Source of the DNA: an uncultured Alphaproteobacteria bacterium
GTDB taxonomy: Bacteria > Pseudomonadota > Alphaproteobacteria > CAAGCB01 > CAG-977
Length of the DNA stretch: 57,359 nucleotides
Direction: 5' to 3'
Assembly (NCBI GenBank): GCA_944391535.1
Contig: CALXTY010000002.1
Span: 1-57,359 of the forward strand
Below the pieces are notes generated by a model that was not told where the DNA came from, did not search any database, and saw only the letters and a list, made by a program, of their open reading frames with translations. This document shows, one piece after another, positions 19,434 through 57,359 of the stretch (position 1 is its first letter; every line of letters starts with the position of its first letter). Position numbers and translations under genes: made by a program.

Positions 19434-19931
19434 ATGAAAGAAATCATTTTTCAAAATCGATCCCGCATACGTTCAATTATCCGGAAGATGACCGGTTCCG
19501 ATAATGAAGATCTGGAACAGGAAGTCTATATCAAGGTGTGGCAAAATAAGGAGGACTATCAGGAAAAGGGCAAGTTTTCTCAATGGGTGAATACGATTAC
19601 GATCAATCTGTGTCGAGATTTTTTTAGATCGAGGACGTATCGCCAAAGACAGTTCGAAGTTCAAAATGAAGATCACGCTTTGCCGGACACAACGAAAAGT
19701 GCGGAAGATATTTATGATGAGCGAAAGCGACAAAAAATGATTTTAAAAGCGGTGGACGAATTACCGTCAAAGCTGCGTCAGATCATCATTTTGTTTGAAT
19801 TTGAGGAATTAAGTTACGAGCAGATTTCCAAAAAAACAGGTTTACCGATCGGAACGATCAAATCTCGTCTTTTTTATGCTCGGAAAATGTTAAGCGAAAA
19901 ACTAAAATCTTTGAAAGGAGATATCAAATGA
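19434..19931 (+). CDS. ECF-type sigma-70 family RNA polymerase sigma factor
   Basis: 165 aa with region 2 (DLEQEVYIKVWQ) and region 4 HTH (LSYEQISKKTGLPIGTIKSRLFYARKML). Confidence 0.85.
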   Translation: MKEIIFQNRSRIRSIIRKMTGSDNEDLEQEVYIKVWQNKEDYQEKGKFSQWVNTITINLCRDFFRSRTYRQRQFEVQNEDHALPDTTKSAEDIYDERKRQKMILKAVDELPSKLRQIIILFEFEELSYEQISKKTGLPIGTIKSRLFYARKMLSEKLKSLKGDIK

Positions 19932-20314
19932 AAATCACACCATTGGCATTAGCTTTTTTAATGGCGTTCAGTTCTTCGGTTTATGCGCAGGAACCGGCGA
20001 AACCGTTGGACAAACCGATGCCACGCAAAGAAATGCGTCATGAAAGACCGAAACCTTTTGAAAATTTGGCGAAAGAATTGGCTTTAACCGAAGAACAAAA
20101 GGCGGAATATCAAAAGATCAATGAGGAGAGTCGAGAAAAGATCAAACCGTTGATGGAACAGATTCAGAAGATTCGTAAAGAAAACATGGAAGCTTTTGAG
20201 AAGATATTAACACCGGAACAAAAGGAACAGTTTATAAAGATGAAAGCGGAAAAGAAAGCTAAACACTTTGAAAAAAGAGGAAGAGGTAAAGGTAAAAAAC
20301 ATCATAAACCTTAA
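19928..20314 (+). CDS. periplasmic Spy/CpxP-like protein with LTXXQ motifs
   Basis: Signal peptide and two LTXXQ-type motifs (LTEEQKAEY, LTPEQKEQF). Overlaps the sigma gene by 4 nt. Confidence 0.6.
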   Translation: MKITPLALAFLMAFSSSVYAQEPAKPLDKPMPRKEMRHERPKPFENLAKELALTEEQKAEYQKINEESREKIKPLMEQIQKIRKENMEAFEKILTPEQKEQFIKMKAEKKAKHFEKRGRGKGKKHHKP

Positions 20315-20335
20315 GAAAACGAAAAAATGAAAAAA

Positions 20336-20360
20336 GCTCTCTTTAAAAGAGAGCTTTTTT
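20336..20360 (+). terminator. intrinsic terminator of the ECF sigma operon
   Basis: GCTCTCT-TTAAA-AGAGAGC hairpin plus T6. Confidence 0.8.
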
Positions 20361-20433
20361 ATAGCTTAAACCGTCAGTGATCGGGTATGCTTAATAAATA
20401 AGAAGGATTGTCCAAAGATCAGAAAGAAACAAG

Positions 20434-20643
20434 ATGTTATATGTATTTTATTTGATTTTATTTGTTGTTTTAGGCGCGTTGGCTTACGGCATAGTGTTGT
20501 TTTTCTTAAAATGCCTGTCTTGCGCGCGCGATCCTTGCGAACGTTCTGCGCAAGAACGTGAAATAGAAGAAGAATATATGATGCATGACTTTATGGCGGA
20601 CGGTTCTCTCGACGGCAGACTGGATCCGCATGATCGGGATTAA
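20434..20643 (+). CDS. small hypothetical membrane protein
   Basis: 69-aa ORF with one N-terminal TM helix and no recognisable family. Confidence 0.3.
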   Translation: MLYVFYLILFVVLGALAYGIVLFFLKCLSCARDPCERSAQEREIEEEYMMHDFMADGSLDGRLDPHDRD

Positions 20644-20770
20644 GAAAGGGAGGTCGGAGCAATACTTTAAATGCCGTTGAATTTGTCGTCGTGGATTCAT
20701 TTTTTTTTCAATGTCTGATTTTCTGCTGTCTTTTTTATAATTGCTTTGATATGCTGAACGGGCATTCGTA

Positions 20771-20967
20771 AACAAAACGGGTGCAGGGCGTCAGAAACCC
20801 TTTTAAACCTAGTCGCAGAAGCATATAGCGACTTTAAATATTTATGCCGATTTCTGTCTTATATGGGCGGATGTCGGCTGAATACGGCTATCTGCCCAAT
20901 AGGTCGAGCCGTTTTAGGTTTATACGGTTTCTGAACATCCGCCCACCTGATCGGTGGGTTTTTGTTT
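20771..20967 (+). ncRNA. copy 1 of a repeated structured RNA-like leader (candidate cis-regulatory element or sRNA) ending in a terminator-like hairpin
   Basis: Shares conserved blocks and helices with 33961-34165(-) and 56921-57119(+). Hairpin CCCACC-TGATC-GGTGGG plus TTTTTGTTT lies 27 nt before ATG 20994. Confidence 0.55.
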
Positions 20968-20993
20968 AATGTTTAACAAAGGAATGTTCAGGA

Positions 20994-21648
20994 ATGAAAA
21001 AAATAATTATTTCTTTTTTAGCGGGATTTTTCCTGTTTTGCGGCGTTGCGCGGGCGCAAACGGCTTCGGTGCAGGTTGTCGGCGATAAAACGGAAACCAA
21101 GTATCTTCAAGGTGTCTTGGGGATTGATGTTTCGGGGATCGGCGTGGATATCACGGACGGTCTGGATAACTTTGTCGAAGACGCTTATTCCGCGATAACT
21201 TTGTCCGCCGGTGTGAAAGTCAACAATCAAATCTCTCTTACGGGATTTTATCAGTTTTCCTCGGAAGAAGACAAAACAACATACGCTTATTTGGGATATG
21301 ATAATTACTTGTACGAAAAAAACAACAGGCAGTTTTAAAGCGTACGGCGTTGATGCCTCTGTTTATCTTCCGGTGTCTGAAAAAGTTGATTTTGTTGCTT
21401 CCGCAGGCGTGGGGTATTATGACGTTTCTGTTGATTTTAAAGATAGCTTCTCAGATGGCAGCTATGCTTGGGGAACCTATGAAGAAGATCATATCGGTTT
21501 GCGTTTCGGAATCGGAGCGGAAGTCAAACTGGCCGAGCATATCGCTTTGACGGGCAATGTGCGCTATGTCTTTTTGGATTATGACGATGATACCGATTAT
21601 ATCGAAAATCTGGCGGAATTCGGTCTGGGCGTCAGGTTTTATTTCTGA
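20994..21648 (+). pseudogene. small outer-membrane beta-barrel protein gene interrupted by a frameshift in an A7 tract (or phase-variable, or a sequencing error)
   Basis: ORFs 20994-21338 (signal peptide) and 21298-21648 (ends ...GLGVRFYF) overlap at A7 21316-21322. One extra A would give a continuous ~218-aa OMP-like protein. Confidence 0.6.
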
Positions 21649-21659
21649 GGGAGCGAACA

Positions 21660-22055
21660 ATGAAAAAAATGATTTTTATCTTGCTCGCTTTGGCGGGACT
21701 GTCCGGTTGCGCAACTATTGTCAAAGGATCTTCTCAGACAATGAATATTTCGACATCAAACGGAAAACAGGCAAATGTTGTCGTTACGGGAAAAAGCGGA
21801 ACGATACCGACTTTGATTCCTCAGGCTCTTTCGGTTGAAAAGTCTGCGGGGGATATCGTCATCAATGTGACGGAAGCCGAATGTGTTCTGCCTTCGACAA
21901 CGATTGTCAAGTCGCGTCTTAATCCGTGGTTCTGGGGGAACTTCATTTTTGGCGGTCTGTTGGGGTCTACCACGGATGTTGCTACCGGATCGGCTTGGGA
22001 ATATGACAGCAATATCATGGTCAATGTTGTGCCAAAAGATGGCTGTAAACAATAA
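21660..22055 (+). CDS. lipoprotein, function unknown
   Basis: Signal peptide with lipobox LSGC (MKKMIFILLALAGLSGCAT). Confidence 0.6.
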   Translation: MKKMIFILLALAGLSGCATIVKGSSQTMNISTSNGKQANVVVTGKSGTIPTLIPQALSVEKSAGDIVINVTEAECVLPSTTIVKSRLNPWFWGNFIFGGLLGSTTDVATGSAWEYDSNIMVNVVPKDGCKQ

Positions 22056-32720: not shown

Positions 32721-33176
32721 TTATACGCAACAACACCCCGATGATGTGGCGGCTGGTGAATACCCCGATTTGCAGGATACGCCTTCGCATCCGACAGGTA
32801 TGCAACAACACCCCGTGTCCGTCGCTTCCGCAGTTGATCCGGACAAACACGAAACGTCCGTGCAATTCGGTATCGCGTTTTCACCGTCGCAATAGGTCTT
32901 TTCGGGACAGACCAGACACAGATTGTCGGATATATACCGATCAATCGCGCAGGACAGACACGACCCGGTCGTTTTATCGCATTTTTGACAGTTTGCGTCA
33001 CAGTCAAATTCTTCGGGTGGTTTTACGATTTCCGCGGATCCTGTCGAAGTGGACAATTTAATGACGCTTTGATACGAACTGGTCGCGTTCATATTTCGTC
33101 CCAGTTTCAGAACCCTGCTTTGCGCCGGCGGGCTCAACAGCATTAAGGCGCAAACAATACAGATGCACTTTTTCAT
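32721..33176 (-). CDS. secreted cysteine-rich protein (151 aa), C-terminus ...GCCCV
   Basis: Start at ATG 33176 gives signal peptide MKKCICIVCALMLLSPPAQS. CxxC-rich mature part. Lies 11 nt downstream of the preceding Cys-rich gene. Confidence 0.6.
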   Translation of the reverse strand: MKKCICIVCALMLLSPPAQSRVLKLGRNMNATSSYQSVIKLSTSTGSAEIVKPPEEFDCDANCQKCDKTTGSCLSCAIDRYISDNLCLVCPEKTYCDGENAIPNCTDVSCLSGSTAEATDTGCCCIPVGCEGVSCKSGYSPAATSSGCCCV

Positions 33177-33187
33177 GATCGCCCGCC

Positions 33188-33934
33188 TTATTTGTTGATG
33201 CAACAACAGCCGTCGGACGACAACGTCATGCGGGACGGACACGAATTGACCGTGTTCTTTTTTGTCGGTTCGGGTTCGTCTTCGACACATTGTCCGTTCA
33301 CCGCTTTAAATCCGGAATAACAAGCGGTGCAGTAAGCGGGATTTCCGTTCGTGCACGATTTGCATGGTGCCCTGCATGGTTGGCAAATGGGATCTGTTGG
33401 ATTCATGTGAGAATAACCGTCCCGGCAGACGGGAAAAGTTGTCCCTCCCGGACACGTGGCGTTGGAAGGGCAAGACTGGCAGGAACCATTATATAAAAAA
33501 TATCCCGGTCTGCAGCTGGCGCATCTATTGCTACTGTCAACGCACGTTACGCAGGCCGGAGAACAGGGTCGGCAAGTCGTACCCTGCGGAAAGAAACCGT
33601 CCGGACAGGAAACGATTCGGTTCGTTCCGTCACAAGTCGCTCCCGCAGGGCAAGGAGCGCACTGATAGTAGGTGCTGGCGTAAAGCAAATAACCGGGATT
33701 GCAACGGACGCAGTTTTGTCCGTTTCCCACCGCGCAATTTTTATCCATACAATATACCCTGCTTCCCGAGACGGAAGAAAATTTATATCCGGCGCCGGTG
33801 CAAATTTCTGCCGGCGTTCGGGTTTCATCGCAGCCCACGGAAAAAGATCCGTCCGGCCCGCGACAGGATATTGCCAGACTGTCGGTCGGACTCAGCCATA
33901 AGGCGATTAAAATAAGAAAGAGTTTGATTTTCAT
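33188..33934 (-). CDS. secreted cysteine-rich protein with furin-like (FU/VSP-type) repeats, C-terminus ...GCCCINK
   Basis: Signal peptide, then 32 Cys by my count. Repeated C-x2-C-x2-GY(F/L)LY...C-x2-CP...ATC units (CVRCNPGYLLY..CAPCPAGATC; CASCRPGYFLYNGSCQSCPSNATC). Confidence 0.7.
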   Translation of the reverse strand: MKIKLFLILIALWLSPTDSLAISCRGPDGSFSVGCDETRTPAEICTGAGYKFSSVSGSRVYCMDKNCAVGNGQNCVRCNPGYLLYASTYYQCAPCPAGATCDGTNRIVSCPDGFFPQGTTCRPCSPACVTCVDSSNRCASCRPGYFLYNGSCQSCPSNATCPGGTTFPVCRDGYSHMNPTDPICQPCRAPCKSCTNGNPAYCTACYSGFKAVNGQCVEDEPEPTKKNTVNSCPSRMTLSSDGCCCINK

Positions 33935-33960
33935 TTGAACAATCCTTTGTTTTGTTGTTT

Positions 33961-34165
33961 AAACAAAAACCTACCCGAAAAGGTAGGCGGATGTTCGAAA
34001 ACCGTATACGTATTTACGGCTCGGCGGTTTCGCGCAAAGCCTTATAGCGCCGACATCCGCCCGTAAGACAGACAGAAATCGGCATAGATATTTACAGTCG
34101 CCATATGCATTGCGACTATACGTAAAAGGGTTTTCGAAGCCCTGAACCGTTGATTTAAACGGTCT
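33961..34165 (-). ncRNA. copy 2 of the repeated structured RNA-like leader
   Basis: The reverse complement aligns with copies 1 and 3. Compensatory TCGAAAACC/GGTTTTCGA helix. Hairpin CCTACC-TTTTC-GGGTAGG plus TTTTTGTTT lies 27 nt before ATG 33934. Confidence 0.55.
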
Positions 34166-34319
34166 GGAACAATTATATCAGGAACGTCCGTTGAATGCCA
34201 GATTTAACTCGTTGTTATGACAATTATATGAAATAAAAGAATTTTTTCGGGTTGCAATAAGTCGTCGGGCGTGTAGAGTAAAAGGTGAATTATGAATACA
34301 GTTTTTTAAGGAACAAGAA

Positions 34320-56844: not shown

Positions 56845-56850
56845 AAAAAA

Positions 56851-56874
56851 CGCCTGAAAAATCAGGCGTTTTTT
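56851..56874 (+). terminator. intrinsic terminator
   Basis: CGCCTGA-AAAA-TCAGGCG plus T6. Confidence 0.85.
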
Positions 56875-56920
56875 GTTTCATCTGGTTTTTATGATCTCTT
56901 TTTGTTAAAATTTGATCAGG

Positions 56921-57119
56921 CGGTTTAAATCAACCGCTCAGGGCGTCAGAAACCCTTTCACGTGTAGTCGCAATGCATAGGGCGACTTTAAATAATTATG
57001 CCGATTTCTGTCTGACGGGCGGATGTCGGCGTTATAAGGCTTTGCGCGAAATCGCCGAGCCGTAAATACGTGTACGGTTTCTGAACATCCGCCTACCTTT
57101 GTTGGGTAGGTTTTTGTTT
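56921..57119 (+). ncRNA. copy 3 of the repeated structured RNA-like leader
   Basis: Aligns with copies 1 and 2. Hairpin CCTACC-TTTGTT-GGGTAGG plus TTTTTGTTT lies 27 nt before ATG 57147. Confidence 0.55.
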
Positions 57120-57146
57120 AACCTAAACAAAAAGGATTGTTCAGAG

Positions 57147-57359
57147 ATGAAAAAATCAATAAAACTTATCAGCGTTTTTACGCTTCTTCTCCTTTCTTTC
57201 TGTCCGACAGACAGTCTGGCAATATCCTGTCACGGGCCGGACGGATCTTTTTCCGTGGGCTGCGATGAAACCCGAACGCCGACAGAAATTTGCACCGGCG
57301 CCGGATATAAATTTTCTTCCGTCTCGGGAAGCAGGGTATATTGTATGGATAAAAATTGC
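57147..57359 (+). CDS. secreted furin-like Cys-rich repeat protein, paralog of 33188-33934 (3' end outside window)
   Basis: Open frame from ATG 57147 to the window end: MKKSIKLISVFTLLLLSFCPTDSLAISCHGPDGSFSVGCDETRTPTEICTGAGYKFSSVSGSRVYCMDKNC. The mature part is nearly identical to the other copy. Confidence 0.75.
   Translation, partial: MKKSIKLISVFTLLLLSFCPTDSLAISCHGPDGSFSVGCDETRTPTEICTGAGYKFSSVSGSRVYCMDKNC

Follow-up and report, generated by a model that had tools for sequence, protein, structure and literature searches.

Three leader copies and the genes they precede

The 57,359-nt stretch of contig CALXTY010000002.1 analysed here (the window), from an uncultured Alphaproteobacteria bacterium, carries three copies of a non-coding block 5′ of protein genes, numbered copy 1 (20771), copy 2 (33961) and copy 3 (56921). 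The original prediction placed them at 20771–20967 (+), 33961–34165 (−) and 56921–57119 (+), and the sequence at these positions is as it was described. Judged from sequence, the three repeats are a real and strongly supported structured RNA family acting as a 5′ leader. Mean column identity among the aligned window copies is 83%. A covariance model built from relatives (R1) and run over the window identifies exactly three sites, at 56940–57093 (+), 20785–20943 (+) and 33986–34143 (−), with scores of 153.9, 153.8 and 143.3 bits (E 1e-34 to 1e-37); beyond these copies nothing in the window exceeds 8 bits. The 14-mer GGGCGGATGTCGGC has three exact occurrences in the window, and four are found when up to two mismatches are allowed, as opposed to 0.43 expected by chance.

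The upstream neighbour of copy 3 has its own terminator at 56845–56874 (terminator scan). An extended −10-like box, TGTTAAAAT, can be read at about 56903–56911 (+) as a putative promoter element, and transcription would start at about 56917–56919; a stricter promoter scan revealed no full −35/−10 pair for this copy. Across the family, promoter-like motifs occur in 54 of 106 leaders as opposed to 77 of 530 control regions, and in the leaders with such a motif the −10 element ends 24–29 nt before P1, the first hairpin of the structured core. The 3′ end of copy 3 is formed by the Shine–Dalgarno (SD) sequence with its spacer, GGAUUGUUCAGAG (57134–57146, +), which according to folding and family statistics is complementary to UCUGAACAUCC, and the start codon ATG follows at 57147 (+). 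Copy 1 as a whole spans 20750–20993 (+) and comprises a −10-like box TATGCU (20750–20755), the 5′ terminal hairpin P0 (20763–20784), the core (20785–20943), a terminator CCCACC/GGUGGG with its U tract (20942–20967) and the SD region (20981–20993). Copy 2 spans 33935–34180 (−), where the same parts are found as an extended −10 box TGATATAAT (34172–34180), P0 (34145–34164), the core (33986–34143), a terminator CCUACC/GGUAGG with its U tract (33961–33987) and the SD region (33935–33945).

The sense placement 5′ of a gene that had been noticed in the window extends to the family, where the leader stands in a fixed register with a start codon: an SD and an ATG follow on the sense strand in 103 of 118 occurrences, and the distance from core to ATG is 42–64 nt (median 52) in 103 relatives. 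The short spacing between terminator and start codon is likewise as originally stated, with 27–35 nt from U tract to ATG in the window copies.

Copy 1 precedes a gene for an outer-membrane β-barrel protein of 114 aa (20994–21338, +), whose 215-aa homologue at locus L015 matches OMP_b-brl with 61.8 bits. DNA alignment indicates that the gene (20994–21700) is cut to 114 aa by a 4-nt indel in a hypervariable block; other strains have intact homologues of 215–217 aa that differ in variable, mosaic blocks, a pattern like that of surface loops under antigenic variation. The translation of the copy 2 gene (33188–33934, −) is a Cys-rich secreted protein of 248 aa with a Pfam VSP match of 23.4 bits, below the family cut-off. 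VSP is the Giardia variant-specific surface protein family, and the match of the copy 2 paralogue is weak. Copy 3 is followed by the start of a paralogue of the copy 2 gene, again encoding a Cys-rich secreted protein, which runs off the window (57147–57359, +).

Directly 3′ of the copy 2 gene lies a second gene for a Cys-rich secreted protein (32721–33290, −) with an internal start MKKCICIVCALMLLSPPAQS and CxxC repeats, for which no Pfam match was found. Just 5′ of copy 1, at 19434–20643, a gene for a sigma factor of the extracytoplasmic function type (Sigma70_r2/r4_2) is accompanied by small open reading frames (ORFs) of 128 and 69 aa, and this arrangement of sigma factor and two small ORFs is kept in other strains. 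An exact look-up of the protein encoded at 19928–20314 returned seven places, which are the source of the allelic leader comparison given below; in the same kind of look-up, two window proteins had no match and one other matched only a 1.6-kb contig.

Scanning one genome per species with the exact pattern ACGGTTTYYGAACATCCGCC identified at least 115 loci from about 70 metagenome-assembled genomes (MAGs) of gut and rumen Alphaproteobacteria. Nearly all matches listed are such MAGs, for example Acetobacter sp. CAG:977, uncultured Azospirillum, Rhodospirillaceae UMGS1296 and Candidatus Scatocola; a few differently labelled bins, all from one project, are probably mislabelled. At least 11 copies are present in the MAG CAVGVF, and at least 3–4 in each of several other MAGs. 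A diverged subfamily (subfamily 2), which starts with GAGGUGUGAGAACCUC, is found by the covariance model at 33–48 bits, and a metagenome scan for it gave 15 loci, of which eight are true members and seven are chance matches in unrelated sequence. Phage origin was considered and rejected, the viral contigs searched having no match to the leader or to the element that interrupts some of its copies (see below).

The genes had been described as signal-peptide genes of secreted type; across the family this is too narrow, as cytoplasmic glycosyltransferases and cell-surface genes in general are included. A Pfam scan of 101 distinct downstream proteins yielded OMP_b-brl (9), Autotransporter (7), Opacity (6), PEGA lipoprotein (6), GT2 (4), APH-type phosphotransferase (4), OmpA-like (4), BspA LRR (3), Surface_Ag_2 (3), Bundlin, a type IV pilin (3), GT8 (2), VSP-like Cys-rich (2), Sialyltransferase (1), Stealth (1) and DNA methylase (1), and many other downstream proteins begin with the prepilin-type motif GRSMIEMLGVLAII. 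From these annotations, what the genes share is a link to the cell surface rather than a signal peptide per se, and the downstream units mostly consist of one short gene.

A triply pseudoknotted core

The three helices originally proposed from differences between the window copies are all borne out in larger alignments. The upstream hairpin is the 5′ terminal hairpin P0, formed in copy 3 (all copy 3 features being on the + strand) by GGCGGUU/AACCGCU at 56919–56938. It is present in the minimum-energy fold, its sequence varies with the pairing kept, and across relatives 96% of these hairpins fold at −4 kcal/mol or better, with a mean of −7.4 kcal/mol as opposed to −2.5 kcal/mol for shuffles. 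The helix UCAGAAA/UUUCUGA, here termed PKb, covaries through four states (CAG/CUG, CGA/UCG, CAA/UUG and GAG/CUC). Its 5′ strand (56946–56952) sits in the loop of the small hairpin P1, AGGG/CCCU (56940–56956), in which three of four pairs are compensated, for example from AGGG/CCCU to GAGG/CCUC; three PKb pairs are compensated as well. The terminal hairpin, with CCCACC/GGTGGG in one window copy and CCTACC/GGTAGG in the other two, also covaries and corresponds to the terminator called at 57091–57111. An additional pairing had been suggested between the invariant GGCGGAUGU (57018–57026) and ACAUCCGCC (57085–57093). This is a true helix, P4, which closes a 3′ three-way junction; it is constant in close relatives and compensated in diverged copies, where it reads GACCGGAAG/CUUCCGGUC, GGCUGGAAG/CUUCCAGUC or GUGGGGAUG/CGUCCCCAC, with four pairs changed on both sides. 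The 3′ strands of PKb (UUUCUGA, 57078–57084) and P4 are contiguous and together form the B strand (57078–57093).

Further helices were identified beyond those of the original prediction. The long-range helix P2 joins CACGUGU (56959–56965) to AUACGUG (57066–57072) in the loop of hairpin P7, and all seven of its pairs covary. Hairpin P3, AGUCGC/GCGACU (56966–56987), shows compensatory changes at six of six pairs, and its loop GCAU (56975–56978) pairs with AUGC (56998–57001) in the loop pseudoknot PKa, where all four pairs are changed on both sides (for example, GCAU/AUGC to GCAC/GUGC). The P5/P6 arm with its internal loop (57027–57057) covaries at five of five P5 pairs and two of three P6 pairs; the conserved sequences of the internal loop are GAAUAAGG and AAAUAAG, represented in copy 3 by the variants UUAUAAGG and GAAAU. 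P7 itself, CCGU/ACGG (57060–57077, pairing 57060–57063 with 57074–57077), has two compensated pairs and reads CUAU/AUAG in subfamily 2. Two further candidates were rejected: the internal UUUCUG at 57005–57010 as another partner of the P1 loop, which shows no co-variation with the P1 loop states, and a leader peptide, since the ORF that begins in the copy 3 P3 loop has no conserved counterpart in copy 1.

The strength of the covariation was evaluated in an alignment of 43 sequences including subfamily 2 (A7), which was compared with 500 shuffles and with slid controls. Here, 95.3% of cells are paired as opposed to 78.3% in the shuffles and 32–40% in the slid controls, and the covariation score of 0.470 (shuffles, 0.165) is reached by none of the 500 shuffles. 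Compensatory pairs are present in all nine helices. P2 covaries at all 7 pairs with all four Watson–Crick types and 100% of cells paired, and the compensated pairs number four in P4, two in P7, three in PKb and four in PKa. As P4, P7, PKa and PKb are absent from the structure of the covariance model, their counts are not fitted by the alignment. In a set of 46 close relatives, 96.3% of cells are paired (shuffles, 87.8%) and the covariation score is 0.285 as opposed to 0.121, again reached by 0 of 500 shuffles. Within this set all four Watson–Crick pair types occur at seven of eight P2 pairs, and two PKb pairs switch jointly (AU 29/GC 17 and GC 27/AU 19). P4 and P7 are invariant among the close relatives because the search pattern fixed one strand.

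The crossing of these helices had been read as either a pseudoknot or two mutually exclusive folds. The pseudoknot stands: the crossing helices coexist, and two exclusive folds within the core were rejected, as P1, PKb, P2, P7 and P4 have no nucleotides in common and each of them covaries. The minimum-energy fold, in which pseudoknots are not modelled, chooses a long PKb+P2 helix, because the method cannot draw the remaining helices. Since the helices use different nucleotides, the core is a single fold. The alignments thus show one compact, triply pseudoknotted domain (PKb, P2 and PKa), in which a 3′ three-way junction of P4, P5/P6 and P7 is clamped by the 5′ domain through these pseudoknots. 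The clamp consists of the P1 loop with the junction strand UUUCUGA (PKb), the linker between P1 and P3 with the P7 loop (P2), and the P3 loop with a downstream strand (PKa). In the alignment of relatives, the junction nucleotides are near-invariant. For the same copies, the reverse strand scores 7–36 bits with the covariance model as opposed to 104–165 bits for the sense strand; together with the frequency of G-U pairs, these far lower scores place the constraint on RNA and not on DNA.

Comparison of the orthologous copy-1 locus between strains (window 20785–20943 vs L133/L134:4716–5061) revealed two very different leader alleles between identical flanks. The promoter, P0, P1, the B strand, the terminator and the SD are identical in the two alleles; P2, P3/PKa and P5 differ, and every difference is compensated. 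Such mosaic alleles suggest gene conversion between leader paralogues.

Some leader copies are interrupted or shortened. In the UMGS1296 MAG, all four of the four copies found (L011:545–640, L015:799–853, L088:7028–7077 and L090:1220–1269) are broken at one point in the P4 5′ strand. The foreign sequence is identical in the four copies and hairpin-rich, and the contigs stop there. Its right junction reads CTTTTCTTTCTAACAATG followed by (A)TGGCG or TCGGC, the right end also being given as CTAACAATG, and a left junction, GGGCGGAT to CAACCCAGTTAAAAAGTATCAT, is present at the copy-1 locus of another strain (L136:2936–2958). The inserted sequence looks like a repeated mobile element that targets a conserved sequence of the leader, possibly of IS110/IS1111 type; it is absent from the window and from the viral contigs searched. 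Three other copies (L035:89–208, L037:2387–2516 and L107:6713–6842) are short variants without P3 and PKa, which may be degenerate or free-standing.

Terminator, ribosome-binding site and probable control of the gene

Downstream of the core, the terminator scan identifies a GC-rich hairpin with a U tract in copy 3 (57091–57111 and TTTTGTTTAA); the intrinsic terminator, GCCUACCU...GGGUAGGU and then UUUUGUUUA, covers 57091–57120 and has 57091–57093 in common with the P4 3′ strand. Among 110 relatives scanned, a terminator stem of 5–10 bp was resolved in 80, each with a T-run after it, and T-run detection failed in the remaining 30. P4 can be extended to 10–11 bp with at most one mismatch, and in well-resolved relatives its 3′ strand overlaps the 5′ strand of the terminator by 3–5 nt, the outermost nucleotides of this P4 strand doubling as the base of the terminator stem. 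The overlap persists in sequence-diverged copies, for example where GACCGGAAG/CUUCCGGUC is followed by GUCGCU...AGCGGC.

The second feature with two possible partners is UUUCUGAACAUCC, which is paired inside the fold and is also complementary to the SD region. The SD region GGAUGUUCAGAAA mimics, in one continuous run, the P4 5′ strand (GGAUGU) and the PKb 5′ strand (UCAGAAA). The 16-nt strand UUUCUGA-ACAUCCGCC can therefore pair either with its PKb and P4 partners inside the fold or with GGAUGUUCAGAAA outside it. The B strand forms a duplex of −11.2 kcal/mol on average with its own initiation region (n=103), as opposed to −5.2 kcal/mol with those of 430 other genes of the same loci (p=4e-39), and pairing within the own class is stronger than with the swapped class (−11.17 vs −9.59 kcal/mol, p=8e-8). 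The spacer follows the state of the strand: copies with CUG have xAGA in 20 cases and YGAA in 2, and copies with UCG have xAGA in 5 and YGAA in 12 (Fisher p=1.2e-4). In subfamily 2, where B is CAACUUCC and the SD is GGAAGUUG, initiation regions reach −9.3 kcal/mol with their own B strand vs −4.6 kcal/mol with that of subfamily 1. When the segment from B to ATG is folded separately, the B:SD helix appears in all three window copies and encloses the terminator hairpin and a hairpin of U tract and A tract, with energies of −32.4 kcal/mol for copy 3 (57070–57155; z=−5.6), −30.4 kcal/mol for copy 1 and −24.9 kcal/mol for copy 2 (z from −4.2 to −5.6).

The U tract UUUUUGUUU is complementary to the A-rich tract before the SD, AAACAAAAA, and a lone G is matched by a C. 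These tracts lie at 57112–57133, 20959–20980 and 33948–33969 and are predicted to form the third hairpin of the SD-masking junction in the read-through RNA. CsrA-type control was also considered. The SD context ACAAAGGAUGU resembles the CsrA SELEX (systematic evolution of ligands by exponential enrichment) consensus; the location of the upstream GGA within a helix speaks against this candidate.

Taken together, the leader is probably a cis-acting, effector-responsive (riboswitch-like) RNA of ~230 nt that gates the downstream gene, a reading to which a probability of roughly 0.55 is assigned. The suggestion of an attenuator or riboswitch-like leader thus fits the strong covariation, the promoter-like site, the terminator before the ribosome-binding site, the overlap of P4 with the terminator and the covarying anti-SD pairing, and it is the last two that strengthen it. 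Generic features of riboswitches are likewise found, namely a covarying sensor domain with invariant junction nucleotides and an expression platform some of whose nucleotides belong to a sensor helix. The effector, a small ligand or a protein, would stabilize the fold. The complete stabilized fold would keep the outer P4 pairs, whereby the terminator would be weakened, the polymerase would read through and the SD would be free, leaving the gene ON. With outer P4 frayed or the fold unstabilized, the terminator would form and release a short RNA of ~200 nt, and in a read-through transcript of an unstabilized leader the freed B strand would mask the ribosome-binding site, leaving the gene OFF. 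Many copies per genome would put a variable surface repertoire of Opa-like and β-barrel outer-membrane proteins, pilins, autotransporters and surface glycosyltransferases under one signal.

Several observations weigh against such a switch. The overlap between P4 and the terminator is only 3–5 nt, and mutual exclusion is only partial because a 7-bp P4 core can coexist with the full terminator. The minimum-energy fold of the full-length leader keeps the core intact and leaves the SD only weakly paired; the OFF state consequently needs a destabilized core. Joint duplication of a leader and its gene would pass both on together and could thereby exaggerate the co-variation between the SD and the B strand. 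The gene set is functionally coherent (surface proteins and surface glycosylation) yet provides no metabolic clue to an effector; the downstream genes suggest a signal rather than a metabolite. Finally, the three short variants described above have no SD or ORF within 160 nt downstream.

This last observation also speaks for the best-surviving alternative, which is nevertheless considered unlikely: an independent gene for a stable small RNA (sRNA), like the Rfam family sRNA-Xcc1 (RF02221), acting in trans or binding a protein, with its place before genes being secondary and read-through incidental. The anatomy of promoter, structured RNA and intrinsic terminator would suit such a gene, and the 3′ domain resembles sRNA-Xcc1, a discrete and abundant RNA with low ribosome coverage (PMC2996969, PMC5331693). 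What an sRNA gene leaves unaccounted for is the fixed register and orientation with respect to the following start codon (103 of 118 cases), the lack of room for a second promoter, and a ribosome site in each gene that is complementary to, and co-varies with, its own leader strand. Moreover, the strand that would serve as "seed" is itself taken up by two covarying helices, and at least 11 near-identical copies per MAG would be unusual for a trans-acting sRNA.

Quite unlikely as well is a constitutive, non-sensing 5′ untranslated region that stabilizes the mRNA by means of its 5′ hairpin and compact fold and keeps translation low through its anti-SD strand, with processing by an RNase as a possible means of activation, as in type I toxin mRNAs. 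P0 at the 5′ terminus, the strong sequestration of the SD in the read-through fold and the position of genuine Xcc1 RNAs directly before tightly controlled genes (symE in Xanthomonas, ant in an E. coli prophage) are compatible with this idea. Nine helices, three pseudoknots and a near-invariant junction, in contrast, far exceed what stabilization or simple SD masking would need, and P4 and the terminator compete in a conserved manner, which implies a decision point.

Recruitment of an antitermination factor (an RfaH/NusG paralogue, or a put/EAR-like RNA) for read-through of the terminator and of long surface operons is improbable. The gene set does resemble an RfaH/UpxY regulon, with lipooligosaccharide/lipopolysaccharide glycosyltransferases, pili, autotransporters and outer-membrane proteins, a terminator lies immediately 3′ of the element, and GGCGGAUGU is loosely like the ops element, GGCGGUAG. 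The ops element acts as non-template DNA and is conserved in sequence, unlike P4, whose sequence becomes GACCGGAAG or GUGGGGAUG with the pairing kept. In the same way, an RfaH ops/JUMPStart element (GGCGGTAG) was rejected, as relatives carry GACCGGAAG, GGCTGGAAG or GTGGGGATG in place of the similar stretch GGCGGATGT, with compensation on the partner strand. Downstream units are mostly single short genes and not long operons, and the covariation of the anti-SD would be left unexplained.

Essentially excluded by the covariation is a DNA-level repeat with incidental RNA structure, be it a miniature inverted-repeat transposable element, a mobile promoter cassette or a recombination site for antigenic variation: the multicopy occurrence upstream of contingency-type surface genes, the mosaic alleles at one orthologous locus and the foreign element inserted at one fixed point in several copies would agree with it, yet compensatory changes keep the RNA pairs, including many strand-specific G-U pairs, reverse-strand scores fall far below those of the sense strand, the leader is always sense and in register with the downstream ATG and is absent from viral contigs, and its ends are not inverted repeats (target-site duplications were not formally searched).

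The riboswitch-like leader can be taken one step further, to a new class of riboswitch or protein-sensing switch through which one intracellular or host signal would coordinate the whole variable surface-antigen repertoire of uncultured gut Alphaproteobacteria at both termination and translation, including lipooligosaccharide glycosyltransferases, with Xcc1 as a minimal relative; this extension is tentative and, on balance, doubtful. The family itself would add a large, well-supported structured RNA, with nine covarying helices and three pseudoknots, to a group of bacteria known only from metagenome bins. It would represent a single RNA device placed before the genes that decide what these gut bacteria display to their host and to phages. 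The dual expression platform, consisting of a terminator over the closing helix and a covarying anti-SD, provides directly testable predictions, and the identity of an effector, if one exists, would show which signal governs the surface repertoire.

Relation to known riboswitches and to sRNA-Xcc1

The original prediction recognized no known family in the leader, and none was found at the gathering score, where an Rfam scan of the window returned only four tRNAs. Permissive scans of copy 3 and eight further loci revealed only sub-threshold matches to sRNA-Xcc1, and at E up to 10 the leader has no Rfam match to GEMM or to any second-messenger riboswitch. No prior description of this leader RNA was found in the literature searched, the coverage of which was not exhaustive, and the family is apparently undescribed.

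Among characterized systems, the add and pbuE adenine riboswitches provide the closest parallel in logic offered here. In these RNAs, the 3′ strand of the closing helix serves as anti-SD (add) or is common to the terminator stem (pbuE). The leader would resemble them in that a folded sensor leads to read-through or a free ribosome site, and in the order of promoter, aptamer, terminator, ribosome-binding site and gene. It is without sequence or structure relation to either, and it differs in having both platforms, a terminator overlap of 3–5 nt and a core of ~155 nt with three pseudoknots. The c-di-GMP-I (GEMM) riboswitches, which respond to cyclic di-GMP, occur in many copies per genome before genes for pili, adhesins, outer-membrane proteins and secreted proteins. 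Here, the likeness is an analogy of regulons only, the fold of the leader being different.

The structural comparison leads to sRNA-Xcc1. With its model, window positions 57017–57102 score 33.0 bits and locus L016 scores 37.7 bits, below the gathering score of 53, whereas a true sRNA-Xcc1 in E. coli EDL933 scores 69.1 bits; conversely, R1 gives no meaningful match to the E. coli Xcc1. Owing to these sub-threshold scores and to the failure of R1 to detect a genuine Xcc1, the leader is not a member of the family. The junction of P4, P5/P6 and P7 nevertheless aligns along the whole 87-position sRNA-Xcc1 model, and a three-way junction is found in both. Common to the two RNAs are a closing stem rich in GC, a long arm containing an internal loop, a short hairpin GCCGU/ACGGU and then the conserved junction strand UUU(Y)UGA.

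In Xanthomonas campestris pv. campestris, sRNA-Xcc1 is ~88 nt in length as mapped by rapid amplification of cDNA ends, its 5′ end corresponds to the closing stem, and it is detected as a discrete RNA of about 90–100 nt (PMC2996969). The Xcc1 of E. coli EDL933 is abundant and has low ribosome coverage (PMC5331693). The leader, unlike Xcc1, has an extra 5′ domain of ~100 nt (P0, P1, P2, P3 and PKa) whose partners are the junction and the hairpin loop of the Xcc1-like part. Its promoter-like site is located ~100 nt upstream of the P4 5′ strand, and P1, P2, P3, PKa and PKb need this 5′ extension, so that the leader would extend beyond the 88 nt of Xcc1. The hosts differ as well: the leader resides in chromosomes of gut Alphaproteobacteria and Xcc1 in mobile elements of Gamma- and Betaproteobacteria, and the classes of associated genes are different.

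Both RNAs can occur in multiple copies, with seven copies of Xcc1 in Xylella, and both immediately precede a protein gene in the same orientation. In E. coli O157:H7 EDL933, Xcc1 (L132:24620–24708, −; NZ_CP008957.1 1394619–1394707) lies 40 nt before ant, the antirepressor gene of a prophage, which has the same orientation, and an adjacent hairpin CCGCCAG/CUGGCGG overlaps its closing stem by 2 nt. Further copies lie upstream of symE in Xanthomonas integron cassettes and upstream of an ORF6N gene in APSE phages. The leader is thus possibly a distant relative of sRNA-Xcc1. The latter has been called a trans-acting sRNA, a mechanism which is not established, and it may itself be a cis-acting leader rather than, or besides, a trans-acting sRNA.

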